Notes: generated by a model from the sequence alone, not told the origin. Counted from the stretch's first letter, positions 29,892 through 51,590 are shown. The stretch: DNA of 64,000 bases from Opitutia bacterium (GCA_947478395.1 CANJVR010000004.1:160001-224000); one strand, 5' to 3'. A program made the numbers and translations.

Positions 29892-30941
29892 ATGAAGCGT
29901 TTTTTATCTCTGCTGATACGCATCGGCCTGATCTTGGGCTCCGTCGCGCAGGTGCTGGCCGCGGTCGCGGTCGATGACGGGCTGGCAAAATTCGGCCGGC
30001 TGACGCGTGGCGACGTCGCGCCCGCGTTTAAGGCCATGGGCCGCGAGGGTAAGGAGGTGAAGCTGGCCGATTTCAAGGGCCGCCCGGTATTGATCGCGTT
30101 TTGCGCGGCGACGGGTCCGCGCGATGCGTTGTTGCAACTCAACGCTGAGTTTCACGACCAAGGTCTCGCGCTGCTGTTAATTTTTTCCGGGACGCCGAAA
30201 GCCGTTTTTGAGGCGTGGGTGGCGAAGAACCCGCCGATTGACGGCGTCACCGTCGCCTGGGACGGCGCAGCGCGCACGGCGCCCGAGAGCATTGCTGGGG
30301 TCATTTTCGGACTGAGCGTGATTCCCGCCACGGGTGTAATCGACCAAGAGGGCAAGCTGGTTGGCGGCTTCGTCGGCTTCGGTTCGCAGTCGCCGCAGTT
30401 CGCGAGTTCGCTGCTGGTCGCGGCGGGATTGAAGTCCCCCACGCCGGTGTCGCCGCCTCCGGGCGCGGGTGAAAACGGTCCGCCTACGCTCGTCGTTGGA
30501 GCCGTCGCGCCGGATTTTTCCACGACCGATATCACCGCTAAGTTGGTCAAGATTTCTGATTACGCGGGAAAAATCGTCGTCTTGGATTTCTGGGCGACTT
30601 GGTGCGGCCCGTGCGTCGTCTCGATGCAGCACGCGGAAAAAGTTGGAGCGGCGACGAAAACGCAGGGCGTGGTTGTGCTCGCTTCGTGCACCAGCGACAC
30701 GCGCCAGGCTTTCGAGGAGTGGCTCAAGAAAAACCAGCCGACTTATCCGTCGCTCGTGTTTTCCCACGATGCGGCGGAGCGGGGTGAAGCGCGGGCGGCG
30801 CGCAAACTCTATGGGGTGACGGGCATCCCCACGCAGTTCGTGATCGGCCGTGACGGGAAGATTGTCGCGGTGAACGTCGGCTACGGCGAAGGGGATACGC
30901 GGCTCGAGGAAGAATTGAAATCGCTCGGCGTGAAATTCTGA
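29892..30941 (+). CDS. Exported two-domain redoxin (degenerate Trx fold + TlpA WCGPC domain)
   Basis: Signal peptide; first domain APAF...VKLADFKGRPVLIAF lacks CxxC; second has DFWATWCGPC and GIPTQFVIGRDGK. Confidence 0.9.
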   Translation: MKRFLSLLIRIGLILGSVAQVLAAVAVDDGLAKFGRLTRGDVAPAFKAMGREGKEVKLADFKGRPVLIAFCAATGPRDALLQLNAEFHDQGLALLLIFSGTPKAVFEAWVAKNPPIDGVTVAWDGAARTAPESIAGVIFGLSVIPATGVIDQEGKLVGGFVGFGSQSPQFASSLLVAAGLKSPTPVSPPPGAGENGPPTLVVGAVAPDFSTTDITAKLVKISDYAGKIVVLDFWATWCGPCVVSMQHAEKVGAATKTQGVVVLASCTSDTRQAFEEWLKKNQPTYPSLVFSHDAAERGEARAARKLYGVTGIPTQFVIGRDGKIVAVNVGYGEGDTRLEEELKSLGVKF

Positions 30942-30992
30942 AGCACGTAGCGCCGCGCTGGGGCGGTTTAATTTTTTCCGTGGCTGTATGGT

Positions 30993-31062
30993 ATAGCGGC
31001 AGGCGTCCCTGCCTGCCGGGTTCGGCGTCCTCGTTTCGGCAGGCAGGGACGCCTGCCGCTAC
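30993..31062. repeat. REP family A palindrome (copy 2)
   Basis: ATAGCGGCAGGCGTCCCTGCCTGCC...GGCAGGCAGGGACGCCTGCCGCTAC between convergent genes. Confidence 0.9.
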
Positions 31063-31115
31063 CTCGTTCGCGGCTACGCTTTTGCCTGAACCGCTCTAGT
31101 CGTGCCAAAATTTCA

Positions 31116-33206
31116 TCATCCCTTCACCGCATCGAGCACGACGCTCGGACGGAGTAGTTCGGGCAGAATGACGGGTTCGGTTTTCCCGGGGAGCCAGACG
31201 ACGTTGAACGGAACCGCACTGCGCTGGTATTTCGCGAGCTCGGCGGTGATCTGCGGATCTTTGTTCGTCCAGTCGCCGCGCAACGTGACGATTTTCTTGT
31301 CGCGGAAAGTTTTCAGCACCTCCTCCGAGTGGAATACGATCTTTTTGTTCGTCTGACAGGTGGCGCACCAGCGGGCCGTGAAATCGACGTACACCGTGCG
31401 GCCCTCGGCTTGAAGTTTGGCGACGGCTTCGGGGCTCCATTTTTCCCAGACGACATCGGTCGGCGTGGCGGGCATCGGCCAGCCAGTCCACAGGCCGAGC
31501 GCAAAAACCGCGGCGCCCGCGATAAAGCCGAAGCGCGTGCGCCCCGGTTTGGCCCCCGGCTGATTGTATCGGCCATAGACCCACACGCCGAGGGCGATGA
31601 GCACGAGGCCGAACAGCGCCATCAACGAACCGTTCTCGGTGGTCTGCCCGGCGAGCACCCACGCGAGGTAGGCGACAGTGGCATAAAGCGGGAAGGCCAT
31701 GAACTGCTTGAATGTTTCCATCCACGCGCCGGGGCGGGGGAGAATTTTAACGGCGGCGGGAAAAATCGAGAGGAGCAGATAAGGCGTCGCCAACCCGATC
31801 GCGATCGCGGTGAAAACCGCGAACGATTCGACCGTGCTCAACGTCAGCGCCGCGCCGAGAGCCGGGGCAAGAAAGGGTGCGCTGCAAGGCGTGGCGACAA
31901 CCGTCGCGAGCACGCCGGTGAAAAATGAACCGGCCAGCCCTGATTTGACCTGGAGATTTGAACCGACGCCGGTCGCCGCGAGACCGAACTCGAACACGCC
32001 GCTCATGTTCAACGCGAAGACCAACATCACGGCGGCGAGGCCGAAGACGAAGACGGGCGACTGCAGTTGAAATCCCCAGCCAAGCTGGTCGCCGCCGGCC
32101 CGCAGGACAGCGAGGACGGTGGCGAGGGTCCAGAACGAGAGTAACACGCCGAGGGCGAACACGAGGCCGTGCGCGACGACCTTGCTCCGCTCGTGGCCGG
32201 ACTGGTTGACGAAGCCCAAAATCTTGATGCCGATGACGGGAAAAACGCAGGGCATCAGATTCAGGATGAGGCCACCGACCAGCGCCAGCAGTAGCGTCGC
32301 TCCGAGCGAGGCGGGCGCGGCGGCGATGCCGCCGCTCGCTGGTTTTGAGTTGGCCGAGGCGGAGGCGATGGTCGAACCGAGGACGGCCTCGATGCGCAAG
32401 CCGCGGAGCAAATTGTTGGGCAACCAGCCGGTTTCGCTCGTAAGTACGCCGAGAAGTTTAGGCGCGTCTTTGGGCCCGTCGGGAGAAATTGGCAGCGTGA
32501 GCGTGAAACCGCCGGAACCGTCCGGGGAAGTTTTTTGCGGGAGCTCGTAGGCCACGAGACTGTCGTCGGAGAAAAAATGCAGATCGCTCGGCACGTGCGC
32601 GCCGGGCGCTGCGGGCCGGATGGTGAGGGTAACATTTTTCGCGTCACGCGTGGCGGAGGTGGTCCATGCGGCGTCGGCGCGCGGCAGCCCGGCGATCAGC
32701 GCGTTGAGCCGCGGGCCGAAGTTGGCGTCGGACGCGGCGTTGATGGCGACCGGGAGTGAAAGCCGGACTTTGGCGCTGCCGGGCATGCAGACCTCCTCGC
32801 ACATGAGCCATTCGGCCGCGGCTTGCAGATCGATCTGGCTGCCGGGCGCGACATCGGCCGGTGGCGTGAGGATAACGGGAAGCAGGAGATCGCCCTCGTA
32901 GCCATTACCGACGACGGAGCCGGTGCGGTCTTTTAGCACGTGGGGCGCGGGCCACTGAATCTCGCTGGCTTTCCAGCCGGGCGGGAGCGACCACTTGATT
33001 TCGGTGACCAGGCCGGTGCCGGGATTCAGCCAGTAGGTGTGCCAGTGGGCATCATGCTCCAGACGCAGGGCGACCGTGAGCGGTTTGCCGGGCTGGATGG
33101 CGGTATCGGCCGCGACCAGCGAAGCTTTCACGTGTTGCGCGTAAGCCGTGGGCAACAGAACGGTGAGCGCGAACGCGCTGAGGACAAACAAGCGGGAAAC
33201 GTTCAT
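31116..33206 (-). CDS. dsbD: Protein-disulfide reductase DsbD family
   Basis: WHTYWLNPG and CEEVC N-terminal domain; LNLMPCVFPV and ATPCSAPFL membrane cysteines; C-terminal DFTARWCATC. Confidence 0.93.
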   Translation of the reverse strand: MNVSRLFVLSAFALTVLLPTAYAQHVKASLVAADTAIQPGKPLTVALRLEHDAHWHTYWLNPGTGLVTEIKWSLPPGWKASEIQWPAPHVLKDRTGSVVGNGYEGDLLLPVILTPPADVAPGSQIDLQAAAEWLMCEEVCMPGSAKVRLSLPVAINAASDANFGPRLNALIAGLPRADAAWTTSATRDAKNVTLTIRPAAPGAHVPSDLHFFSDDSLVAYELPQKTSPDGSGGFTLTLPISPDGPKDAPKLLGVLTSETGWLPNNLLRGLRIEAVLGSTIASASANSKPASGGIAAAPASLGATLLLALVGGLILNLMPCVFPVIGIKILGFVNQSGHERSKVVAHGLVFALGVLLSFWTLATVLAVLRAGGDQLGWGFQLQSPVFVFGLAAVMLVFALNMSGVFEFGLAATGVGSNLQVKSGLAGSFFTGVLATVVATPCSAPFLAPALGAALTLSTVESFAVFTAIAIGLATPYLLLSIFPAAVKILPRPGAWMETFKQFMAFPLYATVAYLAWVLAGQTTENGSLMALFGLVLIALGVWVYGRYNQPGAKPGRTRFGFIAGAAVFALGLWTGWPMPATPTDVVWEKWSPEAVAKLQAEGRTVYVDFTARWCATCQTNKKIVFHSEEVLKTFRDKKIVTLRGDWTNKDPQITAELAKYQRSAVPFNVVWLPGKTEPVILPELLRPSVVLDAVKG

Positions 33207-33338: not shown

Positions 33339-33434
33339 GTAGGGCGGATTATTCTTAATCCGCCGCATTGGGAGTTGAGCATCGTATTACCGCGAACAGA
33401 GCAGAATCGGCGCGTTAGGGATAACGCGCCCTAC
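33339..33434. repeat. REP family B doublet (copy 2)
   Basis: GTAGGGCGGATTATTCTTAATCCGCCG...CGGCGCGTTAGGGATAACGCGCCCTAC. Confidence 0.88.
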
Positions 33435-33487
33435 CTTGAGAGGGGTGCCCGAAAGGGCGGGGTGTGTCGGTTTATTCACGCGTTGGA

Positions 33488-34432
33488 TTAATTTCCGAAG
33501 AGCTTCGTTGAATAGTACCGCTCGGCGCGGTCGCACAGAATGGTGACCACGCGACTGGCCGGCCCCATCGTGACCGCGGTCCGCAGGGCGGCGATGACAT
33601 TGGCGCCACTCGATGTCCCGACCAACAATCCGAACTCGCGGCTGAGACGGCGCGTCATCGCGATCGCATCGGCGCTGGAGACTTTGATGGCGCCGTCGAG
33701 TTTCGCCTGTCGGAGGAGGGGCGGCACATAGCCGCCGGCGACGCCCTCGATGGAATGGCAGCACGGCATCTCGCCGGAAAGCATCGCGGCTTCCGCGGGC
33801 TCCATCGCGAAAACGCGCACGTTCGGCAGCGCAGCACGCAAAGCCCGGCCGCAGCCGGTGAGCGTGCCGCCGGTGCCGTAACCCGCGACGAACGCGTCCA
33901 CGCGACCTTCCATTTGCGCGAGGATTTCCCGTCCGGTGTGTTGCTCGTGGTCGAGCGCGTTAAGCGGATTTTCGAACTGGTTTGGTAAGAAATAGCGCGC
34001 ATCTTCGGCGGCCATTTTCCGGCTCAGGTCGATGCCGGTCGCGTAGCCATTGGCCGCCGCGAACAGTTGCACCTCGGCGCCGAGTTGGCGCAACAGATGA
34101 CGTCGCTCCACGCTCGCGCCCTCGCTCATCAGGATGTGGACCCGATACCTCTTCGCGGCGCCGACCATGGCCAGCGCGATGCCGGTGTTGCCGCTCGTGC
34201 ATTCGAGAATGACCGAGTCCGGACGCAGTAAATTTCGTTGTTCGGCGTCCTCGATAATCGTGAGCGCGAGCCGATCCTTGATCGAGCCGGAGGGATTCAG
34301 AAATTCGGCCTTGGCGTAGATGGTGACGCCTTCTTGCGCAAACGTCAGGGGTATGAGCGCGGTGTCACCGATGAGTGCAAGCACGGGCGCGCGAGTGGGC
34401 GGTGAAGGCTGGGCCGATGACATCGCCGGCAT
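33488..34432 (-). CDS. PLP-dependent cysteine synthase family protein
   Basis: NPSGSIKDR (PLP lysine), TSGNTG, NQFENP, GTGGT, GTSSGAN. Confidence 0.93.
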   Translation of the reverse strand: MPAMSSAQPSPPTRAPVLALIGDTALIPLTFAQEGVTIYAKAEFLNPSGSIKDRLALTIIEDAEQRNLLRPDSVILECTSGNTGIALAMVGAAKRYRVHILMSEGASVERRHLLRQLGAEVQLFAAANGYATGIDLSRKMAAEDARYFLPNQFENPLNALDHEQHTGREILAQMEGRVDAFVAGYGTGGTLTGCGRALRAALPNVRVFAMEPAEAAMLSGEMPCCHSIEGVAGGYVPPLLRQAKLDGAIKVSSADAIAMTRRLSREFGLLVGTSSGANVIAALRTAVTMGPASRVVTILCDRAERYYSTKLFGN

Positions 34433-34456: not shown

Positions 34457-34476
34457 AACACGACTAAGGTTAGGTT
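34457..34476 (-). promoter_or_regulatory. Candidate LuxR-type operator upstream of cysteine synthase
   Basis: Minus strand AACCTAACCTTAGTCGTGTT(G), 17/20 identical to the box at 35733, overlapping TTGCAT. Confidence 0.65.
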
Positions 34477-34514: not shown

Positions 34515-35684
34515 TTACCGCAGCACGACCATCAGTTTCGACCGGCTGGTCACGCCGAGTTTTCGAAAAATTCCGCTGAGCTGAACTTTAACGCTGCCTT
34601 CGCTGCGGCTGAGCTTCGCCGCGATTTCCTTGTTGCTGAGCCCGGTGCAAACCAAGTCCGCGAGCGCGCGTTCGGTCGGAGTGAGTTGTCCGCGCAACCG
34701 CTCGGGCGCCGCCTCCGAGCCACCGGCGCCCAAAAGCGCCGCTTCCGGGCTGTGCAGGTGGAGCACGAAAATGGGCTTGGTCAGGGCGCCCGCACTTTCC
34801 CGGCGCAAGGTGATCGCCGCGCGATAGAGTCCGGATGAAACCTCGGTGCCGAGCGGAGCGGGCTCATGCGGCGACTGCGCTTGGTTTTGCCATTCCGGTT
34901 TGAGCGCATGGCAGGCGGCGGCAATTTCCGGCGGGATCTTAAAGACCGCTTGGGGCGTGAACGCCCGCGCCCGTTCGGGTCCGAAATTCCACGCGGCGCA
35001 CAACACGAGCGCTTCCTGGCTCGCGAAAACGGCGTCGAGATTCCAGTCGAGGAACACCACTGCTTCCGGTTTGGCGCGGTAGAAATTTTCCAGCAGACGC
35101 CGCCGGCGCCGCTCGCCTTCGAAGACGCGCACGCGTTCGAACGCCACCGCGATGTGCGGATGCAGCGAGCGCAGCGTTTCCATTTCCTCGACCGTGAAAT
35201 CACCTTGGTCCCCGCGCCGGCGGAGCGCAAAAGAGGTTTCGACTTGTTCGCCCCGCCAGAAAAGGAGATGCGCCGAGTACCGCCACCCGAGTGGAGTCAT
35301 GTACTTCTTATAATAGGGCGTGCGCGGAATCTTTTTCTCGTCCGGCATGACATCGGTGTGCCGGTAGCAGGGAATACCGCGATGGCGCTCGAGAAAAGGG
35401 CCGAAAAACTGGCGGCCCTCCACGGCAACGATGCGGGCTGTGTCCTCATCGTCGACGACGCGCGATTTTGCCGACGTGAGCCGGCGCGTCGTCGATTCGC
35501 TCCGCCAGTCGAGGTAATTGACGGACATCACGAGGGTGTCGTGCGGCACCAGCGTTTCGAGTAGCCGTTGCAGCGCCACCCACAGCTCGGCGAAATCAAC
35601 CGCGCGGTGCAGCCCGAGCAGGACGCGCTGCCCGCGCGAAGAGTGAAGCGCAGCGGCGGACGTGGTTTGCAGAGTCGCGGACAT
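34515..35684 (-). CDS. LuxR-family regulator with N-terminal GAF-like sensor region
   Basis: C-terminal LTPTERALADLVCTGLSNKEIAAKL...VKVQLSGIFRKLGVTSRSKL; YYKKYMTPLG...RRRGDQGDFTVEE...LHPHI. Confidence 0.88.
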   Translation of the reverse strand: MSATLQTTSAAALHSSRGQRVLLGLHRAVDFAELWVALQRLLETLVPHDTLVMSVNYLDWRSESTTRRLTSAKSRVVDDEDTARIVAVEGRQFFGPFLERHRGIPCYRHTDVMPDEKKIPRTPYYKKYMTPLGWRYSAHLLFWRGEQVETSFALRRRGDQGDFTVEEMETLRSLHPHIAVAFERVRVFEGERRRRRLLENFYRAKPEAVVFLDWNLDAVFASQEALVLCAAWNFGPERARAFTPQAVFKIPPEIAAACHALKPEWQNQAQSPHEPAPLGTEVSSGLYRAAITLRRESAGALTKPIFVLHLHSPEAALLGAGGSEAAPERLRGQLTPTERALADLVCTGLSNKEIAAKLSRSEGSVKVQLSGIFRKLGVTSRSKLMVVLR

Positions 35685-35732: not shown

Positions 35733-35752
35733 AACCTAACCTTTGTCAGGTT
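35733..35752 (+). promoter_or_regulatory. 20-bp lux-box-like palindrome upstream of TonB-dependent receptor
   Basis: AACCTAAC-CTTT-GTCAGGTT (7/8 dyad), overlapping TTGAGC, in the luxR/TBDR divergent gap. Confidence 0.7.
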
Positions 35753-35786: not shown

Positions 35787-38558
35787 ATGACGCTACACCG
35801 ACTCTGGATCTTTGCCGTGTTGTTACTCACGCCGCTGGCGCTAATCGCGCAAACCGCCCCCACGGCGCCTGCCGCGACCGCCAAGCCGGTTGTTACCCCG
35901 CGGGCCGACGACAGCGTTAAGCTTGAAGGCGTCGAAGTCACCGGCTCACGTATCCGCCTCAATGCTGGCGAGGCACCTGCGGTCCCGGTCTTCGCGCTTT
36001 CGCAGATCGAACTCGAGCAGCTTGGCGTCAATCGCCTGGCCGACATCCGTCAGGCGATCCCGCAGCTCGCGCCGGCCGTCGGCTTCAACGACAATCTCAG
36101 CAACGGCGGCTCGTCGCGCGGCCAGCAGGTCAGCACGTCGTTCAATCTCCGCGGGCTCGGCGGCAACTCCACCCTGATGCTGATCGACGGCCATCGCGTG
36201 CCGCACTCCGGCCAGGAGGCGCCGGGCGGCGCGGGCGGTCGCGAGGACTTTAACGTCGACGGAATTCCCGTCTCCGCGATCGAACGCGTCGAGGTGCTCA
36301 CGCAGGGCGCGAGCGCGGTCTACGGTTCCGAGGCGATCGGTGGCGTGATCAACATCATCCTTAAGAAAAACTATTCGGGCGCCGAGCTTTCGGTGAATTA
36401 CGACAACGCGTTCAAGTCGGACGTCGGCGACACGTCGATCAGTCTCACCGCCGGCTTCGCGCGCGGAAAACTAAAAACCTTTCTCACCGCCAACTGGGAG
36501 CACCAGAACGCGCTGATGTCACGCGACCGCTGGTTTACGGCCACCAACGACGTCACCCGCTACGGTGCCCCCGTCACCTCCAACGCGTTTTTCCTTCAGC
36601 AGCCTCCGGCAGGTGCCGGCCTGATCGCCAGCACCACCGGTCCGCAAAATGCCGGCCAAGCCAATCTCCCCGGCCAGACCTCGAATTTCGTGATTATCCC
36701 GACGGGATCGCGCGGCAACTCCGCGCTCGCCGACTACACGACCGGCGCTTATCCGACCCGCTTCGATCCCGCGCAATATTCCACGGCGATCGATCCGGCG
36801 CGTCGCCGGAGTTTCGTGTTCAAAGCTGACTACGCCGTCTCCGCCCTCGTGCAGCCCTATGCCGAGGCGCGCTGGAGTCGGTTCGAGAATTATTCCACGA
36901 GCACACCGGTGACCGTGCTCTCGCAATCGCTGCCCGCCGGTTACGCCGGCAACCCGTTTGGCCAAGCCGTGTTTCTCCGCAAAGTTTTCTACGACTTGCC
37001 GGCGCCGCAGACGAACTCCTTTCAGGAAAACAGCGGCCTCGTGCTCGGCGTGCGCGGCGATATCCCCGAAGGCGTGCTGCACCGCTGGCGCTACGATCTC
37101 AGCGCATCGATCGCTCGCAACACGATCTTCGACGATCAGATCGCGGCCGGCTTTACCTCCTCCCTGCTTACTGCCGCGATCAACAACGCCGATCCGGCGA
37201 AGCGGCCGCTGCTCGCCTACGACAGCACGAAGGGCGATCCGAACCCCGCGGGCCTGCTCGCAGCGCTGATGCCGACCTTCGATCACCGCGACGTGACCGA
37301 CACTTATCAGTATGCGTTCCAAGCTGACGGCACCGTCTGGACGGGCTGGGCGGGCGACATCAAGGGCGCGTTCGGCGGCGAAGCCGATGAGGAGAAAATT
37401 CGTTTCCACCGCGACGCCGGGGACTCCTCGCTGGCGTTCACCCTCACCAAGCCTTTCGCCCGCCGGACCACGGCGGCCTACACCGAGGTGAGCGTGCCAC
37501 TCCTCTCCGATCGTCAGCGCATTCCCGGCATTCACCGCATCGAAATCTCCGGTGCCATCCGCGCCGAACACTTCTCCGACATCGGCGGCCATAACAGCCG
37601 TCAATACAGTGGAATTTACCAACCGCTGAAATGGATCACTCTGCGGACTTCGCGCGCCGAGGGTTTCAAGACGCCAAAACTCTACGACCTCCTCGCGCCC
37701 ATCTCTACGGGCACCTCGACGCTGACTACGACGAGCAACGTCCACGACACCCTGCGCGGTGGTGAACTTGTGCTCGGCGTCGTCAACAGCACCAGCGGCG
37801 GTCAGCCGCACCTCAAGCCCGAGACGTCGGTCTCGAAGACCGGCGGCATCGTGGTCGATGTGCCCGGCAAATGGTTCAAGGGCCTCTCATTCTCCGTCGA
37901 CACCTGGCAGACTTATTACACGAACAAGATCGGCGGCCCCGGCCGGCAGGTGCTGATCGATTTCTTTCCGGAGCGCGTGACTCGCGCCGCGAAGTCGGCC
38001 TCCGATCCGGCGAACTACGCCGGGCTCATCACCGGGTTCGACACGAGCAACATCAATCTCGCGAGCCAGAAAGCACGCGGGATCGACTACCAGCTCTCCT
38101 ACCAGCACCGCTTCGATTTCGGCCAGCTCTCGTCTTCGATCGCCTACACGAATCCGAACCTGATCGTCACGCAGTCCACGCCTGCGGCCGTGCCGACCTC
38201 CACCTTTGGCCAGCTCCCGTGGCGCACCAGCGGCTCGCTCTTTTGGTCGCGCAATGCCTGGAGCGCCGGCACCTCGATGAGTTACCAGGCCCGCTATTAC
38301 GTCAACGGCCTCACCAGCGCGTATTATCCGTCGCTCATTCTCTGGAATCCCCAAGTGGCCTACAACTTCGCCAAGAATCCCGACTTCGGGGCCAAGTCCG
38401 GCACGTGGTGGGCGCGCGCCTTGTCCGGCAGCAAACTCAGCGTGACGGTGCCGAACGTCTTCAATCACGAACCCACGATGACGGAAGTGGCCTTCGGCCG
38501 CGTGGTCGTCGATCCGCGCCTGCGTCGCTACATCTTGGCTTTCTCGAAAAAACTCTGA
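35787..38558 (+). CDS. TonB-dependent receptor
   Basis: Signal peptide; VEVTGSRI TonB box; NLRGLG, TLMLIDGHR, IERVEVL..GASAVYGSEAIGGVINIILK plug; LKPETS. Confidence 0.93.
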   Translation: MTLHRLWIFAVLLLTPLALIAQTAPTAPAATAKPVVTPRADDSVKLEGVEVTGSRIRLNAGEAPAVPVFALSQIELEQLGVNRLADIRQAIPQLAPAVGFNDNLSNGGSSRGQQVSTSFNLRGLGGNSTLMLIDGHRVPHSGQEAPGGAGGREDFNVDGIPVSAIERVEVLTQGASAVYGSEAIGGVINIILKKNYSGAELSVNYDNAFKSDVGDTSISLTAGFARGKLKTFLTANWEHQNALMSRDRWFTATNDVTRYGAPVTSNAFFLQQPPAGAGLIASTTGPQNAGQANLPGQTSNFVIIPTGSRGNSALADYTTGAYPTRFDPAQYSTAIDPARRRSFVFKADYAVSALVQPYAEARWSRFENYSTSTPVTVLSQSLPAGYAGNPFGQAVFLRKVFYDLPAPQTNSFQENSGLVLGVRGDIPEGVLHRWRYDLSASIARNTIFDDQIAAGFTSSLLTAAINNADPAKRPLLAYDSTKGDPNPAGLLAALMPTFDHRDVTDTYQYAFQADGTVWTGWAGDIKGAFGGEADEEKIRFHRDAGDSSLAFTLTKPFARRTTAAYTEVSVPLLSDRQRIPGIHRIEISGAIRAEHFSDIGGHNSRQYSGIYQPLKWITLRTSRAEGFKTPKLYDLLAPISTGTSTLTTTSNVHDTLRGGELVLGVVNSTSGGQPHLKPETSVSKTGGIVVDVPGKWFKGLSFSVDTWQTYYTNKIGGPGRQVLIDFFPERVTRAAKSASDPANYAGLITGFDTSNINLASQKARGIDYQLSYQHRFDFGQLSSSIAYTNPNLIVTQSTPAAVPTSTFGQLPWRTSGSLFWSRNAWSAGTSMSYQARYYVNGLTSAYYPSLILWNPQVAYNFAKNPDFGAKSGTWWARALSGSKLSVTVPNVFNHEPTMTEVAFGRVVVDPRLRRYILAFSKKL

Positions 38559-38574
38559 GTTTGGTTGTGTTTAG

Positions 38575-38603
38575 GTAGGGGCGGTTCGGCGAGCCGTCCC
38601 TGC
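38575..38603. repeat. Single short GTAG-type REP-like palindrome
   Basis: GTAGGGGCGGTTCGGCGAGCCGTCCCTGC. Confidence 0.5.
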
Positions 38604-38616
38604 CTTTCTTTTCCCC

Positions 38617-39837
38617 ATGAAAAAACTTTTCCTCCTCCTCGCACTTTCCTCTGCTTTGTTCCTCCGCGCGGCGGAGATGCCCGTGCCCGCCGGTACTACT
38701 CCGGTCGTCGCCAAATCCCCGGCCGACCTCGACTACGACGCCGTCTGGGCGCTTTACAAAGAGCAGCCGGCCAATCCCGATTTTCGCAAGGAACAGCCGC
38801 GGGCGGCCTACGAGTGGGAAAACACGAAGTTGAAAAACTTCGTGGCCGCGGCGCGCGCGTTCGCGGCGAAATACCCGAACGATCCAAAGCGTTACGAAGC
38901 TCTCGTACAGTCCAGTTATACGCGTCCGTGGTTTCTGGCGGGCTTCAAGCCGGAGTTCGATGCCACTCCTTCGTCGAAAAACCTGATCATCGATCAAGCC
39001 GCATTGAACGAGTTTCGCGCCACGCAGTTCAAGTATCTCGAGGAAGTAATACTCGCCGCCGACGCCTCAGAGCGCCAGCGGGGCGGAGCGATGTTCGCCT
39101 ATCTGATCGATCGGCGCTCCGATGCGGTCGACCGCGACGTGCCGTATTCCGTCACGACGCTCGAGCCATTGATGGATCGGGTCATCGCCAAATATGGCGA
39201 TGAACGCGCCCTCGTGGTCGTCGATCAATATGCGGCGGCGTTGAAGAAAGAAAAACCAGACGCGTTGCCCGCGTTTGAGGTGAAGCTGCAGAAAGTGCCG
39301 ACACTCGCCGCGGCAATCGTGGAAGCGGCGGCCAAGCGCGAAGCGGCCGCCGCCGACAAGGCGAAGCGGATCGCGACCCTCAACACCTTGAAATTCACGG
39401 CCGCCGATGGACGCGAAGTCGAGCTGGCGAAATTGAAGGGTAAAGTGGTGCTGATCGATTTTTGGGCGACCTGGTGCGGACCGTGCATTGCCGAGCTCCC
39501 CAACGTCGTCGCGAACTATAACAAATATCACGACAAGGGCTTTGAGGTCATCGGCATCACGCTCGAGAATCCGAACGCGAAACCCAATGACACGCCGGCG
39601 GAAACCGAAGAGAAGCTCGCCGTCGCGAAACAGAAGATGCTCGATTTCACCGCGAAAAACGGGATGCCATGGCCGCAGTATTTCGACGGCAAATGGTGGA
39701 AGAACGACTACGCGGTGAAGTTCGCCATCGAGGCGATCCCGGCGATGTTTCTCATCGATCAGCAGGGCAATATCGTTTCGACCGAAGCCCGCGGCCCGGT
39801 CCTCGAAGCGGAATTGAAGCGCCTGCTGAAACTGTGA
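38617..39837 (+). CDS. Exported TlpA-family disulfide reductase with helical N-terminal domain
   Basis: Signal peptide; KGKVVLIDFWATWCGPC, GMPWPQYFDG, AIPAMFLID. Confidence 0.93.
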   Translation: MKKLFLLLALSSALFLRAAEMPVPAGTTPVVAKSPADLDYDAVWALYKEQPANPDFRKEQPRAAYEWENTKLKNFVAAARAFAAKYPNDPKRYEALVQSSYTRPWFLAGFKPEFDATPSSKNLIIDQAALNEFRATQFKYLEEVILAADASERQRGGAMFAYLIDRRSDAVDRDVPYSVTTLEPLMDRVIAKYGDERALVVVDQYAAALKKEKPDALPAFEVKLQKVPTLAAAIVEAAAKREAAAADKAKRIATLNTLKFTAADGREVELAKLKGKVVLIDFWATWCGPCIAELPNVVANYNKYHDKGFEVIGITLENPNAKPNDTPAETEEKLAVAKQKMLDFTAKNGMPWPQYFDGKWWKNDYAVKFAIEAIPAMFLIDQQGNIVSTEARGPVLEAELKRLLKL

Positions 39838-45100: not shown

Positions 45101-45281
45101 TAATTTCAAGCAGGGTATCGTCCGTGGCTACGGCAAGAACGCGCGCTTCAGCCTGGGCGTGAACAACGTCATGGATAAACAGCCCCCGTTCTCTGACACC
45201 CTCTGGGGTTACAACGCCGGCCTCCACAGCCAGCTGATGATGGGGCGCTCCTACGAGCTTTCGCTCGCCGTCCCATTCTGA
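42102..45281 (+). CDS. TonB-dependent transducer (N-terminal signalling/STN domain)
   Basis: YDLPAGDAVSALKQFSAQSG...ALDRLLAQTGL STN domain; ILGSRI; SLRGLG; GASAIYGADAVAGVINIILK; C-terminal Phe. Confidence 0.93.
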   Translation: MRTMSSVIRVLTLVVALAISARAADESKKAYDLPAGDAVSALKQFSAQSGRETLFAADALRGVKTSALKGDFTPKEALDRLLAQTGLVATQDGKTGAFAVVRTGSPEKNAGSRPTAADVAGGAASASAIPLEPAVKMEEVMILGSRIRTTEVAGPSPVSSYDREFIEATGAMTLADFLNKIPQTYSGIASGRSSAPDEFNPDFGQKTETATPAINIALGVSDMAPAQTGVSGVSLRGLGAGSTLVLVDGRRAVTSGNGNKGSDTRQGFVDLNTIPLGMIDHVEVTTDGASAIYGADAVAGVINIILKKNYSGTEVSGNYTGTEHGGGRERNLTVNHGFVTGKLSGSVALTFYDRQNVAASDRAFSRRQDHSGLIVGTLVSTGSAYAGRNFSLNYGYPAVVQAAGGTVAGNFDAIPGVRVVAVPVGTTATPSVAQFTPITNPAPSQTVVNSSGQRRGNTSTFLDLAPESQRRGGNVDLKYKFNDQIEAFGSYRTNESRSYIRSQPTTSLTGSFGAAVTLPAAFNPFNQNVTVGMILTDWGSSAQRVRTVADAVVGGLRGKINSWEWELGYSWQKQDVRQTTRSFNGAPFASLLINPDPALRYNPFLDLYAAGTKSQAALLEPLSLYPELYSVSKNKGLDFSADGPLFTYKGGTVKVAVGGSTATNDVWSRTTSFSAVLVPVTTVATVTGGQKSTAEFAELYVPVFGKSNALPLLERLDFQLAGRNEKNGPFTKSVPKYGVSWSPVKSLLLRASLSQGFRAPGPTEYLVVSPNQTLTLTDPRRNPPSTPGVIITRGSNPDPKPESSDNSFFGLVFEPTFVKGLSFQANYYDTKQKDVLQVIIAQNILNNEALFPDRVTRAAPTAADIALNQPGQVTGVSQMFVNFGRVVNRSMDLAVDYTLPWENFGRFRMQVAANRNLESTRQIAPGQPAVVLDEDTGSPPKWKFNTSLFWRKGSWNASAFLWYLDGFKTNNAGSNSVANTASVIYFSTPAVTKLDLRMGYNFKQGIVRGYGKNARFSLGVNNVMDKQPPFSDTLWGYNAGLHSQLMMGRSYELSLAVPF

Positions 45282-45291: not shown

Positions 45292-45328
45292 AAAGGCCGG
45301 CTCGCTTCCGAGCCGGCCTTTTTGTTTT
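45292..45328 (+). terminator. Intrinsic terminator after TBDR
   Basis: AAAGGCCGGCTCG-CTTC-CGAGCCGGCCTTT followed by a T-rich tail. Confidence 0.8.
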
Positions 45329-45361: not shown

Positions 45362-48300
45362 ATGAAAAAAAAATCTTCCCCCTCCCGCTCGTTGCTGCCG
45401 TCCACCGCGGTCGGGCTCTTGCTTTCGTTAGCGTTTTTACCGCTGCTGCCTGCGCAGACGACCGTTCCCGCCACCGGTGCGACCACCGCCACGTCCGGAT
45501 TCAAACAGCTTAAAGCCGGCGACGCCGCGCCCGACTTCACCGTCACCGGCGCCAAGGGTGAAACCATCAAGCTCTCGGACTTTCGCGGAAAGATCGTGAT
45601 CGTCGATGTGTCGGCCACGTGGTGCGGCCCCTGTCAGGCCGCGATGCCGAACAATGATCGCATTTATCAAAAATACGCCGCGCAGGGCGTCGTGCTTCTC
45701 GGCGTGACCGCCGATGACACGCGCGAAGCCTACGACGGCTGGGTGAAGCGCAACGACACGAAATACAAATTCCGCATGACGTTCGACCCCGCCGGCAAAG
45801 ACGGCTGGGAGAAATCCGTGTTCAACACAGATTATCACGTGACCGGCTTCCCGATGATGTTCGTGGTCGGCCGCGACGGCAAAATCTCCGAGACCGTTTC
45901 CGGCGGCGGACCGGGCGAGGATTACCGTCTCGAATACGCGCTGGCCCGCGCCGGCGCCAAGGTCGATCTCGCGAGCATCCCCGCCGAAGCGAAAAAAGAT
46001 CCCAACGCTCCGAAGTCGGTTCCGATGGTGGCTAAGACCCCGGCGATGCCGGCCTCCACCGCCATGATCGGCATGGGCGCGGCCGCTCCCGCCGGCGGCG
46101 GATTCACGCCGGAAAAATTCGGCAGCGTGGCGCGCGGCGCCGAAGTTGACTTCACCCTCACCGGAATCGACGGCCAGCCGGTCAAGCTCTCGTCCTTCCG
46201 TGGCAAAACGCTCCTCCTCCAGTTCGCCACCTCCAACGGCCCGCAGCCCTGGTTCAAGAAAATCGCCGATACCTACAAGGATCAAGGCGTCACGGCGCTG
46301 GCGGTCTTCTCCGCGACGGAGCGCGAGGCTTTCGATCAATGGGTCGCCGCCAACCCCAAACCCGGTTTCGCCGTCGCGTGGGATTCCGCCGGCAAGGCGT
46401 GGGCCGAAAACGTCACCAACACGATCTTCGGGGTCGGGATGTATCCCGCCACCGCCCTGATCAATGCCGAAGGTAAACTTTGGAGCGGCACGATCGGCAT
46501 GGGCGACAAGGTCATCGCGATGGTTTACTCGATGCTCGCCCGCAACGGCGTGAAGCTCACCCCCGAGCACATGAACGCGCTCGTGGCCGCCGGTGGAGCC
46601 ATCGGCGCGGCTGGCGGCGCTCCGGCGCCCACCGCTACCGCCGCGGTGACCCCTGCGGTTGCAGCCAAGTCCACGTTACTTGCGGCGGGAACCATCGCAC
46701 CTGACTTCATGATGCACGACGTGAACGACAAGGAAGTTCACCTCTCCGATTTCAAGGGCAAGGTCGTCATCCTCGACTTCTGGGCCACGTGGTGCGGCCC
46801 CTGCATTTCGTCTTTTCCGCACACGCAAAAGCTCGCCGAAAAATACGCCGGGCAGGATGTCGTCGTGCTGGCGTCCGGCACGAGCGATACGATCGAAGCG
46901 TTCAAGAAATGGATTCCGCTTAATCAGCCGAAATACCCGAACATGCGCTTCGTGTTCGATCTGAACGAGCGCGATTCGCCCACCTTCGACAAGCGCGCCT
47001 CGGCCAGTCTGTTCGGCGTGACCGGAATTCCCACCCAGTACGTGGTCGGTCGCGACGGCAAGGTCGTCGCCAGTATCGTCGGCAACGGAGGTGAAGGTGA
47101 CCTGCGCACCGAAGGCGCGCTGGCTGCCGCCGGAGTCAAGGTTGACCCCGCGATCGCGGCCAAGGCTAAGGAAGCGCTGGTCGCCGCCGCCTTGGAAGAA
47201 GATCGCCGCGTCTCCGCCTCGGCGACGGCCGCGGCCCGTCCGCCGTTCATGGAAAATTATGGCAAGCTCGTCGCCGGCGAGGCCGTGCCGGAGATGGAAG
47301 TGCAAAACGCCGCTGGTCAGAACGTCACCCTTTCTTCGCTAACCAAGGGCAAGATCACGATTCTCGCCGTCTGGAGCGCCCGGGGCGTGGCCGCCGAAGT
47401 CGTGAAGCAACTGGAACACTATGCGACGAAATATGCGGACCAAGGACTGACCGTCGTCGGTCTCGCAGCCTATGCCGGCCGCGGCGATTTCGATACGATG
47501 CTCAAGATGCAGGAAGGAAACCATACCTTCCCGTTCGTGTTCGATCCGGCCGGCGATGCGCCGAAACCGGCCAAGGCTCCGGCTGATATGACCGTCGATG
47601 AAAAAAAGGAATTTAGCACCGTCCAGCGCGAGCACTTTGCCAAGGTCGCCCCGATGAAATTCACGGGCGGCGTCATGGCCCCGGTGCCGAATTTCACCGT
47701 GATCGACGCGCAGGGCCACATGGTCGGCCTTGGCGTCGGATCAGGTCCCGGCACGGTTGAGTCGGTCGGTAATCTTCTCCTCCGGGCCGGCGTGAAGCTT
47801 GCCGCCGAGGATATGCCGAAGCGCGTCTGGACCGCCGAAGAGACGAAGCCGGCCGCACCGGTCGCCAAGGTTGAAATGTTAAAGGTCGGCGCCGCGGCGC
47901 CCGATTTTGCGGCGACGGATATCGATGGAAAGCCGGTGAAGATTTCCGATTTCCGCGGCAAGGTCGTCATCCTCGATTTCTGGGCCACGTGGTGCGGGCC
48001 GTGTATCACCTCGATGCCGCACACCAACGAAGTCGCGGCGCACTACAAGGATCAGGGCGTCGTTGTGATCGCGTCGTGTACGAGCGACACCCGCGCGATG
48101 TTTGATTCGTGGGTGAAGAAGAACCAATCGACGTTTCCTGAGATGAAGTTCTCTTTCGATCCGCAGGAACGGAAACCCGAGCGCGCCTCGGCCAAACTCT
48201 ACGGCGTCGGCGGTATCCCGCAGCAATTCATCATTGGCCGCGACGGCAAGATTGCCGCGCTCTGCACTGGCTACTTGAAGGGCGAAGTGCTCCTCGAAGC

Positions 48301-48388
48301 GGCGCTGGCGCAAGCCGGCGTCAAGGTCGCCCCCGAGATCATCGTCCAGGCGAAGCGCGATCAGGCCAATCGTGACGCGATGCGCTGA
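45362..48388 (+). CDS. Exported five-domain redoxin (three WCGPC domains alternating with two CxxC-less Trx folds)
   Basis: Signal peptide; SATWCGPC, then QFATSNGP, FWATWCGPC, VWSARG, FWATWCGPC, each in a (AP)DF...L.DF.GK...P...I...G frame. Confidence 0.9.
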   Translation: MKKKSSPSRSLLPSTAVGLLLSLAFLPLLPAQTTVPATGATTATSGFKQLKAGDAAPDFTVTGAKGETIKLSDFRGKIVIVDVSATWCGPCQAAMPNNDRIYQKYAAQGVVLLGVTADDTREAYDGWVKRNDTKYKFRMTFDPAGKDGWEKSVFNTDYHVTGFPMMFVVGRDGKISETVSGGGPGEDYRLEYALARAGAKVDLASIPAEAKKDPNAPKSVPMVAKTPAMPASTAMIGMGAAAPAGGGFTPEKFGSVARGAEVDFTLTGIDGQPVKLSSFRGKTLLLQFATSNGPQPWFKKIADTYKDQGVTALAVFSATEREAFDQWVAANPKPGFAVAWDSAGKAWAENVTNTIFGVGMYPATALINAEGKLWSGTIGMGDKVIAMVYSMLARNGVKLTPEHMNALVAAGGAIGAAGGAPAPTATAAVTPAVAAKSTLLAAGTIAPDFMMHDVNDKEVHLSDFKGKVVILDFWATWCGPCISSFPHTQKLAEKYAGQDVVVLASGTSDTIEAFKKWIPLNQPKYPNMRFVFDLNERDSPTFDKRASASLFGVTGIPTQYVVGRDGKVVASIVGNGGEGDLRTEGALAAAGVKVDPAIAAKAKEALVAAALEEDRRVSASATAAARPPFMENYGKLVAGEAVPEMEVQNAAGQNVTLSSLTKGKITILAVWSARGVAAEVVKQLEHYATKYADQGLTVVGLAAYAGRGDFDTMLKMQEGNHTFPFVFDPAGDAPKPAKAPADMTVDEKKEFSTVQREHFAKVAPMKFTGGVMAPVPNFTVIDAQGHMVGLGVGSGPGTVESVGNLLLRAGVKLAAEDMPKRVWTAEETKPAAPVAKVEMLKVGAAAPDFAATDIDGKPVKISDFRGKVVILDFWATWCGPCITSMPHTNEVAAHYKDQGVVVIASCTSDTRAMFDSWVKKNQSTFPEMKFSFDPQERKPERASAKLYGVGGIPQQFIIGRDGKIAALCTGYLKGEVLLEAALAQAGVKVAPEIIVQAKRDQANRDAMR

Positions 48389-48457
48389 GCGACGGAGAAA
48401 CCGGTCCATGGATTTCGAGGTTAAGCGCGTCCTCGGTTTGTGACACGTTCGCCCGCC

Positions 48458-50359
48458 ATGATCCGGCTGGTTGCAGGCGTGGCATTGCTTGCACTGGCCG
48501 GATGTACGGCCGTAGCGCCCACGGTACCACGGCCAGCGGCGAGAACTAACCCCGGCGCAGCCTCGGTCCGTGGTTCCCGCGACGCGTTCGTGCTCCTCTC
48601 CGGCGGCGGCACGCCGCTCTCGAATAATTACTCGCAGTTTCTGCAGGCGCGCGCCGTTGAATCGTATTTCGCGCACCGTTATCCGGCCGATTCGACGTGG
48701 GTGTTTTTCGGCGTCGGTAATCGCGCCGGCGAACTGCCGGCGCTGGCCGACACCCGGAAGCAATTGAAGCGCGACGACCGGCTCGTCGAATCATGGCTGC
48801 CGGGCTCGCTCCCGCACAATCGCCCGGCAACGCGCGAAAGCTTCCTGAAGGCCTTGCGCGACGAAATCCTGCCCGTCGTGCAGGACGGCGGCACCTTGTT
48901 TCTTTTCATCGGCGACCACGGCTCGTTGTCGCGCGGCAGCCAACCCGAGAGCGTCGTGACGATGTGGCAGTTGAAACAAAATGCCCCCGGCTCGACCGGT
49001 TGGTCCACGGACCCCAAGGAGGAACTGAGCGTCACCGATCTCCGCGCGGCACTCGCCGACGGACTGGGGCGGGGGCGCGTGGTGTTTTGCATGACGCAGT
49101 GCCATTCGGGCGGTTTTCATTATCTCGGCGTTCCCCGTGAGATCGCGCCGCCCGCGGCGTGGTTCACGGTGGCGCCAGCGGGTGCGGCGCGCGGCTCGGC
49201 GCCGTTTCCGCTCATCGCCGGATTCACGGCGACGGATGAGGAATCGCTGGCCGCCGGCTGCGAACCGGATCCCGATCCCGAAAAGTGGGCCGGCTACGAG
49301 CGCTTCGCCGCGGAGTTTTTGCTCGGCCAGGATCTTTTCACACTCGAAACGATGGGACCGGGCCTGCCGTCGTTCGCCGCGGCTCATCAGGCCGCGATTC
49401 TCGTCGATCGTACAATTGATAAACCGCGGGCAACTTCGGAGCAGTTGCTTGATCGCTGGGCGGTCGCGATCGAAAAACTTGCCGCCACTCCGCGAGGCCT
49501 CACGCCCAAGGCCGCGGCCGCGGTGCAGGCGTTTGGACGAGCGGTCGACTCCGGCCGCGTTGAGACGTCTGATCCCGACGTCCGCGCCAAGTCCGCGGAC
49601 TACGCGCGTTACACCGCCCGGCTCGCCGAGCAAAACGCCGCGGCGAAGGACTTACTGGTGGCGGGCACCCGCAAGCAGCTCGAGGACGCCATCGGTCCCG
49701 TCGCCGGCCGACCGGGCTCGCCCGGGACCGGTCGCGGCGGCGGCGCTGGGGGCAATTCGCCGCTGCGCACGGCGTGGCGCGATGTCATCCGCCCGGCGTG
49801 GAAAGCCGCCGTACTCGCCGGTGCCGTGGCGGAATTGCCCGCTGACGCCGTCGAATTTGAAAAGCGCCTGCTCACGCTCGAGGATGGCGGCCGCGATTTC
49901 ATGACCGCGACAGGCAACCCGATGCTCAACGAAACCTACTGGCGTTCCGGCTACGCATTTCCGGACAAGCTCGATCAGACCAAGGCCGATGCCGTGACGG
50001 TTTGGGCGGTGGAGCGCCGCGGCCGGATTGCGGATTGGGCCAAAGCGTCCGACGACGAAAAAGTCCGCGCTGCCGGCGTCACGCTCGCTCCGACAACGAT
50101 TCGCCGTCCGGCGGCCACCACCATGGCGCTGAATCCCGCCATCACCGCGGCCGTGTCGCCCGCCGCGGCCGCGACTCGCACCAATGTTTCGGCGCGCCCG
50201 CTCAGTCGTAAGACCGCCGCCGAGCGCGTGCTGTTCTATCGTCGCACGCTCGCGGCGTGGCAGTGTCTCGTCGCCCTGGACGATCGCGAGGCACTGGCTC
50301 AACTTAATGCCCTTATCCAAATCGAACGCACGCCTCTGCCGCCCCCCGCGGCGGGTTGA
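48458..50359 (+). CDS. Lipoprotein with clan CD (caspase/legumain-like) cysteine-peptidase motifs
   Basis: Lipobox LAGC; FVLLSGGG..NNYS, PATRE, LFLFIGDHG (His) and VVFCMTQCHSGGF (Cys). Confidence 0.7.
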   Translation: MIRLVAGVALLALAGCTAVAPTVPRPAARTNPGAASVRGSRDAFVLLSGGGTPLSNNYSQFLQARAVESYFAHRYPADSTWVFFGVGNRAGELPALADTRKQLKRDDRLVESWLPGSLPHNRPATRESFLKALRDEILPVVQDGGTLFLFIGDHGSLSRGSQPESVVTMWQLKQNAPGSTGWSTDPKEELSVTDLRAALADGLGRGRVVFCMTQCHSGGFHYLGVPREIAPPAAWFTVAPAGAARGSAPFPLIAGFTATDEESLAAGCEPDPDPEKWAGYERFAAEFLLGQDLFTLETMGPGLPSFAAAHQAAILVDRTIDKPRATSEQLLDRWAVAIEKLAATPRGLTPKAAAAVQAFGRAVDSGRVETSDPDVRAKSADYARYTARLAEQNAAAKDLLVAGTRKQLEDAIGPVAGRPGSPGTGRGGGAGGNSPLRTAWRDVIRPAWKAAVLAGAVAELPADAVEFEKRLLTLEDGGRDFMTATGNPMLNETYWRSGYAFPDKLDQTKADAVTVWAVERRGRIADWAKASDDEKVRAAGVTLAPTTIRRPAATTMALNPAITAAVSPAAAATRTNVSARPLSRKTAAERVLFYRRTLAAWQCLVALDDREALAQLNALIQIERTPLPPPAAG

Positions 50360-50381
50360 TCGCTGCGTGATAAAATTTTCC

Positions 50382-51590
50382 ATGAAGATCCATCGCCTCC
50401 TCGCCCTCGCCGCGCTGTCGGCTGCCCTGTTTGTTCTCACTTTGGTTCCGGCGCGCGCCGCCGATCAGACCACGACCGATGCGGACCTAGCCGCGTTCAA
50501 GGCGCTCGTTGCTGAAAAACCGCCCGGTCTGCCGAAGGATCTGGGCAACGAGAAATACTTCACGTGGGTCGGGGCCCAGCGGGACAAAATTTCTGCGGCT
50601 GGCTTCGGCTTCATCGAGCAACATGCCACTGACGCCCGGCGCTGGGATGTGCTCGCGACCACGCTCGCGCAGTCGCCGCTCTTCGTGAAAACCTTTGGCG
50701 CCGACGTTGAGACCAAGGGCCTTGCCGCCGCCGTCATCGACCAAGAGGCGAAGACGGCTTGGGAAAACAAGGGCGAGGCGCTCCGCAAAGAGCTCGTCGC
50801 CTCGACCGACGCGACGCTCGAGCAAAAGGAAGGTGTGGCGTGGTATTTCTTCGCGAAGGACTTTCGGGCGACGACGGCCGCGAAGAACAAGAAGGAGCCG
50901 TTCGATTACCACCCGTTCCGCGCGCGCTTTGATGCGCATGTCGCCAAGTACGGCACCTTGCCCAACATGCCCGCTCGCGCCGGCGATTATCTCGGTGCGC
51001 TCGAAGGCAACATGCCCGGCGACGGCGTAAAGGAATGGCAGTATTTGCAGCAGGGCTCGAACGACGGCCTGCGCACGGCGGCCGGTGAAGCGCTGGCGAA
51101 GATTGAACAGAAGGCGCAATTGAAGGTGAAACCGATCGAGATCGCGTTCACGGCCGTCGATGGCCGTCCGGTGGATTTAAAAAACCTCCGGGGTAAAGTG
51201 GTCCTCGTTGATTTCTGGGCGACGTGGTGCGGCCCATGCATCGCCGAACTGCCGAACGTCAAAAAAGTTTACGCCGACTATCACGCGAAGGGCTTTGAGG
51301 TCGTCGGTATCGCGCTCGAAAACGGAAATTTGCGGCCCACTGACACCGCGGCGCAGACCAGCGATAAAATGGCCAAGGCCGCCAAGGTTCTCACCGATTT
51401 CACCACGGCGGAAGGGATGCCCTGGCCGCAGTATTTCGACGGCAAATATTGGAAGAACGACATCTCGACGCGCTTTAGCATCGAAGCCATCCCGGCGATG
51501 TTCCTGATCGACCAGGAAGGCAAAGTCGTCTCGACGAATGCCCGCGGTCCGGCGCTCGAGGCCGAAGTGAAACGATTGCTCAAGCTTTGA
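50382..51590 (+). CDS. Exported TlpA-family disulfide reductase (paralog of 38617)
   Basis: Signal peptide; DFWATWCGPCIAELPNV, GMPWPQYFDGK, same C-terminus RLLKL. Confidence 0.93.
   Translation: MKIHRLLALAALSAALFVLTLVPARAADQTTTDADLAAFKALVAEKPPGLPKDLGNEKYFTWVGAQRDKISAAGFGFIEQHATDARRWDVLATTLAQSPLFVKTFGADVETKGLAAAVIDQEAKTAWENKGEALRKELVASTDATLEQKEGVAWYFFAKDFRATTAAKNKKEPFDYHPFRARFDAHVAKYGTLPNMPARAGDYLGALEGNMPGDGVKEWQYLQQGSNDGLRTAAGEALAKIEQKAQLKVKPIEIAFTAVDGRPVDLKNLRGKVVLVDFWATWCGPCIAELPNVKKVYADYHAKGFEVVGIALENGNLRPTDTAAQTSDKMAKAAKVLTDFTTAEGMPWPQYFDGKYWKNDISTRFSIEAIPAMFLIDQEGKVVSTNARGPALEAEVKRLLKL

Follow-up and report, generated by a model that had tools for sequence, protein, structure and literature searches.

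TonB-dependent receptors (TBDRs) are the centre of utilisation loci such as the polysaccharide utilisation loci (PULs) of Bacteroidota and the carbohydrate utilisation (CUT) loci of Xanthomonas. Their cargo may also be a peptide, as with the importer RagAB (PMC11817032), and parts of PMC9266682 present lasso peptide clusters in which a receptor is followed by an enzyme that unlocks the imported peptide. ScsB-class electron transporters with TlpA-type partners are described from Caulobacter crescentus in sections of PMC3322552 and PMC10907172. Most TonB receptors have no known cargo, and how Gram-negative bacteria break disulfides in scavenged proteins and peptides (keratin fragments, defensin-like or cystine-knotted molecules) is a largely open question; a keratin breakdown study ties TonB receptors to iron and not to reductases in the sections of its text that bear on them (PMC12938321). 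In this work, we present an analysis of a locus in which TBDR genes are paired with genes of exported proteins of the thioredoxin (Trx) fold, below called redoxins. It occupies positions 29892..51590 of a 64,000-nucleotide stretch of Opitutia bacterium DNA (GCA_947478395.1 CANJVR010000004.1:160001-224000), here called the window, from a genome of 3.3 Mb that is 98.8% complete. The host is a freshwater-type bacterium, and the named relatives obtained by locus search are mainly Opitutaceae.

Open reading frame (ORF) calling and profile scans recovered every gene listed in a first-pass annotation of the window, each in its place. These are four redoxin genes with nine Trx folds (redA 2, redB 1, redC 5, redD 1) and six WCGPC motifs (redA 1, redB 1, redC 3, redD 1), a DsbD-family protein, a CysK-like enzyme of the PALP family, two TBDRs, of which tbdr2 carries an STN domain, an ECF sigma factor, a FecR protein, two LuxR-type helix-turn-helix (HTH) proteins and a clan CD lipoprotein. 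The redoxin concentration is not a matter of chance, because 6 of the 17 matches to the Trx-type WCxxC pattern in a six-frame scan of the genome (several of the others being spurious frames) fall into these four genes, and because only the two TBDR plug domains of the locus, out of 31 in the genome, have a redoxin active site at less than 4 kb, the next nearest standing at 7.4 kb. The whole had been read as a single PUL-like system. The receptor-redoxin pairing proved real, but the 22 kb do not make one unit: the region is a conserved composite of two regulatory cassettes together with recruited and accessory genes.

In a sample of 74 distinct same-strand receptor-redoxin neighbours, whose tbdr2/redC loci were mostly selected on redC, a tbdr2-type receptor was paired with a redC-type redoxin in 34 of 34 cases and a tbdr1-type receptor with a redB-type redoxin in 23 of 23, while a third receptor type had a redD-type partner in 14 of 17. 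Receptor type predicts redoxin type, and we consider it very probable that receptor and redoxin form a functional unit. Scattering in relatives, which the first-pass annotation had named as a ground for rejection, was not seen for the receptor-redoxin pairs, which are kept in 15 genera, with the receptor clade predicting the redoxin type; a conserved predicted operator links luxR1 with tbdr1 and, in part of the genomes, with the cysK-like gene.

Frequencies were determined in one fixed set of 300 family genomes, with two candidates scored per genome; many of these assemblies are fragmented and kin are not independent. The five-domain redC-type redoxin was present in 69 genomes and the tbdr2 orthologue in 66 (68 matches above 680 bits plus one split gene, in G065). 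Both occurred together in 62 genomes against 15 expected, not more than 10 kb apart in 52 of the 66, across 15 genera. The link was absent within 20 kb in 13 genomes, where several receptors lie at contig ends and others are truly separate. In a FastTree phylogeny of 75 receptors the redoxin-linked ones fell into at least four deep lineages; sampling for this tree favours linked loci, rows L111 and L143 are long-branch trimming artefacts, and L183 is mislabelled as redoxin-free. In a phylum sample, the receptor profile matched in 13 of 14 family genomes versus 7 of 166 others, and none of the four out-of-family receptor loci fetched held a redoxin. The possibility that the redoxins serve to fold the receptors was ruled out, since the relatives' receptors contain 0-3 cysteines, none of them conserved, and both mature window receptors contain none. 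Several loci (L221, L222, L223, L236) are arrays of several receptor and multi-redoxin cassettes, with some redoxins lacking CxxC.

Cassette 2 starts with genes of a FecI-like ECF sigma factor (40432..40959, +) and a FecR-like anti-sigma factor (40968..41990, +), both assigned by profile match, followed by tbdr2 (42102..45281, +) and redC (45362..48388, +). The STN-bearing receptor with adjoining FecR and ECF genes makes up a cell-surface signalling TBDR set. The exported product of redC, the fixed tbdr2 partner, has five Trx folds in the order active, inactive plus active, inactive plus active. Among 40 loci picked on redC, a tbdr2 orthologue was found in 33, fecR in 24, ecf in 23, dsbD in 22, a cysK paralogue in 18, a luxR1 relative in 14 and the clan CD peptidase in 2. 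Selenocysteine in redC was considered and rejected: in the one TGA-containing redC locus checked (L207), all four motifs read WCGPC. In two freshwater metatranscriptomes short contigs fell on tbdr2 and redC, but also on a flanking control stretch.

Cassette 1 is built differently. The gene luxR1 (34515..35684, −) encodes a 389-aa protein with a sensor domain, GAF/PAS-like as a language-model lead only, and a LuxR HTH, and is the predicted regulator of the cassette. Divergent from it stand tbdr1 (35787..38558, +), whose receptor has no STN domain, its fixed partner redB (38617..39837, +), encoding an exported protein with a TPR-like helical domain and a WCGPC TlpA domain, and luxR2 (39834..40118, +), a stand-alone small LuxR HTH protein of about 94 aa whose inferred GTG start overlaps the redB stop. 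In genomes chosen on luxR1 alone (orthologue cut-off E < 1e-90, n=22) this divergent arrangement was complete in 20, from seven genera; of the two exceptions, one had a truncated receptor and one a contig end. The gap between luxR1 and tbdr1 contains a conserved palindrome, TAAC-N4-GTTA with flanks AAcc/ggTT (AAccTAAC-N4-GTTAggTT at 35733..35752), a predicted 20-bp operator which resembles a lux box. Of 23 distinct regions upstream of luxR1, 22 score above 12 with its position weight matrix (PWM), a figure that includes 11 training sites and is hence partly circular. The cysK-like gene is preceded by a weaker predicted LuxR1 operator copy (34457..34476, −), which has a PWM score of 14.4 and ranks ninth in the genome; the exact 10-mer ACCTAACCTT occurs in the 3.3-Mb genome only there and at 35734, and the 15-mer AACCTAACCTTnGTC occurs twice in the window versus 0.25 expected. 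LuxR1 control of this gene type is predicted to recur without being general, because the operator stands upstream of it in the window and, as non-training sites above 12, before 4 of the 6 second paralogues of a distant genus, yet among 86 main-paralogue genes, for the most part not neighbours of luxR1, just 2 have it. A sigma-70 promoter scan stayed below chance, and in a metagenome operator scan none of the 121 loci examined, only 9 of them with GC above 55%, encoded luxR1 or receptor homologues.

In both window cassettes, and in 28 of the 74 pairs altogether, a hairpin with a U-tract separates the receptor and redoxin genes. The window copies, at 38573..38605 (+) and 45292..45321 (+), are possible attenuators, and such hairpins may keep receptor mRNA in excess.

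The remaining two redoxins lie at the borders of the locus. Accessory redA (29892..30941, +) encodes an exported TlpA-like protein with one CxxC-less Trx fold and one WCGPC fold, about 40% identical to the redC didomains. A redB paralogue (42%), redD (50382..51590, +), is in relatives the usual partner of the third receptor type, which is absent here. By eye, each of the four redoxins starts with a cleavable signal peptide that lacks a lipobox, and as exported Trx-fold proteins with WCxxC, six of their domains reading WCGPC, they fall among TlpA/ResA-like proteins. The TPR likeness of the redB N-terminal domain is a lead only (TM score <0.5). A third redB/redD paralogue is encoded elsewhere in the genome (G000:C3:505568-506806, L256), about 5 kb from another TBDR gene.

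The dsbD gene (31116..33206, −) encodes a ScsB-class protein with cysteines at C136-C140 (CX3C), C320, C441, C614 and C617, the last two in a WCATC motif. With residues 44-243 of its alpha region, a PDB sequence search matched only 6C29 (E 6e-5), which we take to be Proteus ScsB-alpha. A long alpha region of two Ig subdomains with CX3C, a cysteine pair in beta and a CxxC in gamma place the protein in the ScsB class, as parts of PMC10907172 define it. The first-pass annotation had counted DsbD as a component of the locus. It is present with all six cysteines kept, but dsbD has a housekeeping role, and the cassettes have often come to lie at its site: the family was found in 292 of 301 genomes, and this is the only DsbD_TM gene of the genome. 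For the same two reasons ScsB probably also serves system II cytochrome c maturation, whose ResB/CcsA genes are encoded elsewhere in the genome. One genome (G157) has two dsbD copies, one of them at the locus. EamA exporters were rejected as part of the system, as they track dsbD and not the cassette: among long dsbD loci they occur in 11 of the 19 that lack a cassette and in 18 of the 49 that have one, compared with 1 of 38 cassettes without dsbD. Two paralogous proteins (30%) without a Pfam match are encoded at window 23594-24880 and 24918-26225 (both −), and their homologues recur near dsbD or the cysK-like gene in other genomes, four in tandem in L142.

The cysK-like gene (33488..34432, −) encodes a pyridoxal phosphate (PLP) enzyme of a subfamily that we call CC-type, with four invariant cysteines and the motifs EC[TS]SGNTG, PCCHxIEG and LCDRAERY (or DRY-type). 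Its loci were gathered with the patterns AMEPAEAA/CDRAERYY, which themselves select the subfamily; among the best 80 of 174 loci, EC[TS]SGNTG and CCHxIEG occurred in all 80, and 53 had dsbD as a neighbour, 45 a redoxin gene and 38 a receptor gene. In the 300 family genomes CC-cysK was found in 62, of which 43 also had redC. The enzyme resembles CysK (O-acetylserine sulfhydrylase; PDB 2Q3D, 2EGU and others) in fold, in the PLP lysine motif SIKDR, in the SGNTG and GTGGT loops and in 43-46% identity. It differs in reading EC for EP, CCHSIEG for GPHKIQG, CDRAERY for PDxGERY and GYxTGI for GMxGAI, thus lacking the CysK motifs HxIQG and EPTSGNTG (QG stands in all PDB alignments among the matches listed), and it scores below the curated CysK models (TIGR01139 328.7 vs 350.95; TIGR01136 333.2 vs 344.15) as well as those of Cds1 (75 vs 600) and CBS (227 vs 510). 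Glutamate for glutamine in this loop may be a mark of CBS/Cds1-type enzymes; the portion of PMC8225704 that we consulted does not confirm it. In the structure model the CCH loop has a confidence (pLDDT) below 50. Since the gene is a divergent paralogue with an altered active-site loop and a canonical CysK is encoded elsewhere in the genome, the earlier proposal of a cysteine synthase that feeds cysteine metabolism found no support.

In five loci (L162, L169, L174, L180, L190), which come from Planctomycetota and a Haliangiales bin, CC-cysK lies between or beside the amino-acid catabolic genes tdh (threonine dehydrogenase) and/or kbl (glycine C-acetyltransferase), and such neighbours suggest a catabolic role. 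In L230, L248-L250, L173 and L175, two CC-cysK paralogues with CCH and CCE loops flank a gene of about 3 kb between luxR1 and dsbD, which in L230 is a pitrilysin-like M16 peptidase. A conserved 235-aa membrane protein is encoded directly upstream of CC-cysK in L100 (2763-3533, −) and 14 other loci and is absent from the genome of the window; it has no Pfam or NCBIfam match, falls into unnamed Verrucomicrobiota clusters in Atlas and is Mpv17/PMP22-like by eye only.

The clan CD lipoprotein (48458..50359, +; lipobox LAGC) is a putative peptidase of the caspase-hemoglobinase fold, with invariant His154, Gly155 and Cys215 across 59 sequences and a model of pLDDT 87.5 whose best matches are legumain and metacaspase. 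It is like legumain/C13 and metacaspases in its predicted fold (4AW9: Z 17.7, root-mean-square deviation 3.8, 221 aligned) and its His-Gly and Cys residues, and unlike them in that it is a lipoprotein of a bacterium, contains a large helical insertion, is only 17% identical and has no Pfam match. The first-pass annotation had made it a member of the system; in relatives the gene lies mostly away from the locus, and we class it as accessory. The peptidases of cassette loci vary between clan CD, S9 and M16 types, the M16 ones (pitrilysin-like or other) lying within the cassette or next to it.

Regarding the cargo, we lean, by a modest degree, to the view that the two cassettes import disulfide-bonded peptides and open their disulfides in the periplasm for digestion by peptidases. 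Peptide cargo is likely because related receptors without redoxins adjoin S9 peptidases, gamma-glutamyltransferase (GGT) or lasso isopeptidase, and a putative disulfide reductase as fixed partner of a probable peptide importer then points to peptides with disulfide bonds. Twenty loci were picked on the receptor profile only; a TlpA gene lay directly downstream in 7, and within two genes the 13 redoxin-free ones had an S9 peptidase (3), GGT (1) or an oligopeptide-binding protein (1). Of the three closest redoxin-free receptor paralogues in the genome, two flank an S9 peptidase and GGT. Two of three annotated plasmid matches (26% identity) were inspected, one being the receptor of an ECF-FecR-TBDR-AtxE2 lasso isopeptidase cluster (L232) and the other that of a TBDR-amidohydrolase-M14 peptidase set. 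Cysteine-rich peptide cargo encoded at the locus itself was rejected, none being conserved among 741 small intergenic ORFs of 102 core loci. A BesB-like PLP enzyme is encoded downstream of the cassette in one genus (L098:476-2047), and tryptophanase/tyrosine phenol-lyase near 5 loci; both are too few to separate from synteny.

In the proposed mechanism, binding of cargo to tbdr2 would signal via STN, FecR and the ECF factor, while a small molecule would act on LuxR1 at the palindrome, and TonB would pull the cargo in through the receptors. Judging from what is known of these families, the redoxins would be reduced by DsbD/ScsB and act as reductases, with electrons passing from cytoplasmic thioredoxin to ScsB and on to the WCGPC domains. 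The substrate would be held by the Trx folds that lack CxxC and by the TPR-like domains, and the opened peptide would be cut by interchangeable peptidases, of clan CD in the window and of the M16 or S9 families in relatives. CC-type CysK might handle the released cysteine or thiol, more likely in breakdown or exchange than in cysteine synthesis, and this is the weakest step. More tentatively still, and with a little less than even confidence, we propose that Opitutaceae have a family of redox utilisation loci which would be to disulfides what PULs are to glycans. Each lineage of TonB receptors would have co-evolved with a private, substrate-gripping periplasmic reductase for one class of disulfide-locked peptides, and the four-cysteine CysK-like subfamily under the same operator would dispose of the thiol.

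A number of observations weigh against import and opening of disulfide-bonded peptides. Co-transcription of receptor and redoxin is not assured, because of the terminator-like hairpins between them, and two redoxin-free receptor clades nest among the redoxin-linked ones in the 75-receptor tree. ScsB, being a housekeeping protein, tells nothing specific of the cargo. CC-cysK is absent from 26 of 69 redC genomes, and outside Opitutaceae it adjoins tdh/kbl or other genes and no TBDR. Of the 300 genomes, 42 have the clan CD gene, and only 6 of these place it less than 10 kb from redC; none of 10 genomes from the same genus has it at the locus, and each peptidase type is present in a minority of loci only. 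Eight of the 13 loci without a redoxin showed no peptide-related neighbour, the relationship to lasso and peptidase loci amounts to only 26% identity, and no inner-membrane peptide transporter recurs among the core loci.

Small sulfur compounds (cystine, oxidised glutathione, polysulfides or other organic disulfides) might instead be what the cassettes take up and reduce, to gain sulfur or a thiol that CC-CysK would assimilate. The operator copies upstream of CC-type cysK in the window and before 4 of 6 second paralogues, the cysK-dsbD pair in 53 of the best 80 of 174 loci and the GGT genes beside sister receptors all agree with this; but the genome has its own PAPS reductase-family genes of sulfate assimilation besides canonical CysK, sulfur-starvation, sulfatase or cystine ABC genes are not a recurring feature of the 102 core loci, and large multi-domain and TPR-bearing redoxins would better fit bigger substrates, so we regard it as unlikely. 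The sole, near-universal electron conduit that ScsB provides, together with the system II ResB/CcsA genes, would also suit a hub of envelope redox maintenance resembling Caulobacter ScsB-TlpA-PprX, in which the redoxins would mend proteins of the cell itself or take part in cytochrome c maturation, and the receptors would share no more than their regulation; ScsB is reported to feed TlpA for peroxide reduction in parts of PMC3322552. Yet 231 of the 300 genomes, nearly all of which have ScsB, gave no redC-type gene, no peroxiredoxin or ScsC recurs in the core loci, and one redoxin type per receptor type with putative cargo-sensing regulators would not be expected of general repair, which makes such a hub improbable.

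Import of a metal complex bound through thiols or disulfides, or of a metallophore peptide, with redoxins releasing the metal, has in its favour the FecI/FecR/STN architecture and a distant relative that is a lasso-cluster receptor, for which a catch-and-release idea with the isopeptidase is cited in a section of PMC9266682. The receptors, however, lack any conserved cluster of Cys, His or Met; genes of Sco, PCuAC, periplasmic metal-binding or ABC iron proteins do not recur in the core loci, the 741 small ORFs include no conserved Cys-rich peptide, and neither the window nor four related loci gave an Rfam riboswitch or non-coding RNA match. We think this quite improbable. To defence by uptake and inactivation of disulfide-containing antimicrobial peptides or redox toxins we give the least credence, and very little of it: the chemical reaction would be the same as in the peptide model, and import of a disulfide-bearing toxin by a SusCD system (ButCD) is documented in PMC11467351, but a cell would hardly defend itself by spending energy on the import of a toxin, the toxin exploits ButCD, which gives no protection, and 'thioredoxin' and 'TlpA' are absent from the main text of that paper. 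The import of disulfide-bonded peptides is the reading that we modestly favour.

Further features were noted in the window. An aldo-keto reductase and a flavin reductase are encoded after redD (window 51719-53508); a minority of genomes have the reductase orthologue close to the locus, which probably reflects synteny. A low-GC island (41-44% vs about 62%) spans about 9000-13000 of the window, and two families of short intergenic palindromes like repetitive extragenic palindromic (REP) elements occur at 30993-31080, 40152-40239 and 53529-53616, and at 33394-33441 and 52725-52821.

If the peptide reading is true, Verrucomicrobia, usually viewed as sugar specialists, would also take part in the turnover of peptides and organic sulfur; if the more tentative proposal of redox utilisation loci holds as well, bacteria would have an overlooked route for recycling the disulfide-rich protein of aquatic organic matter. 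Receptor-reductase pairs with a predicted operator and regulator make the cargo findable, and two named isolates, Oleiharenicola lentus (L166) and Opitutaceae bacterium MBA3-11 (L173), have versions of the locus. The analysis also flags an uncharacterised CysK subfamily that reaches Planctomycetota.

We found no description of such a receptor-reductase system in the open-licence PMC and bioRxiv literature that was searched, and it is apparently undescribed. Its likeness to TBDR utilisation loci lies in the association of a receptor with a putative cargo-sensing ECF/anti-sigma pair or one-component regulator and periplasmic processing enzymes. Unlike PULs and RagAB, the window cassettes have no SusD lid and, as the first-pass annotation had seen, no carbohydrate-active enzymes (CAZymes); no SusD, CAZyme or cytochrome c family was found among the 23 proteins scanned against Pfam, the receptors are not SusC-type (TIGR04056 26-34 bits vs a cut-off of 368), and the fixed partner is a putative disulfide reductase. 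With the lasso ECF-FecR-TBDR-AtxE2 clusters (described in part of PMC9266682; L232) the locus shares the order sigma factor, anti-sigma factor, receptor and unlocking enzyme, the receptor at 26% identity; it has no precursor peptide, B/C enzymes or isopeptidase, and the unlocking enzyme here would be a reductase. Like the C. crescentus ScsB-TlpA-PprX/ScsC pathway, as sections of PMC3322552 and PMC10907172 present it, it has a ScsB-class transporter with a two-subdomain alpha region and CX3C, and TlpA-type partners; unlike that pathway, it has no ScsC or peroxiredoxin at the window locus, and its multi-domain TlpAs are each tied to an importer. What is new in comparison with these systems is the single-receptor form in Opitutaceae, the one-to-one pairing, the operator, the recruitment of ScsB and the CC-type CysK.

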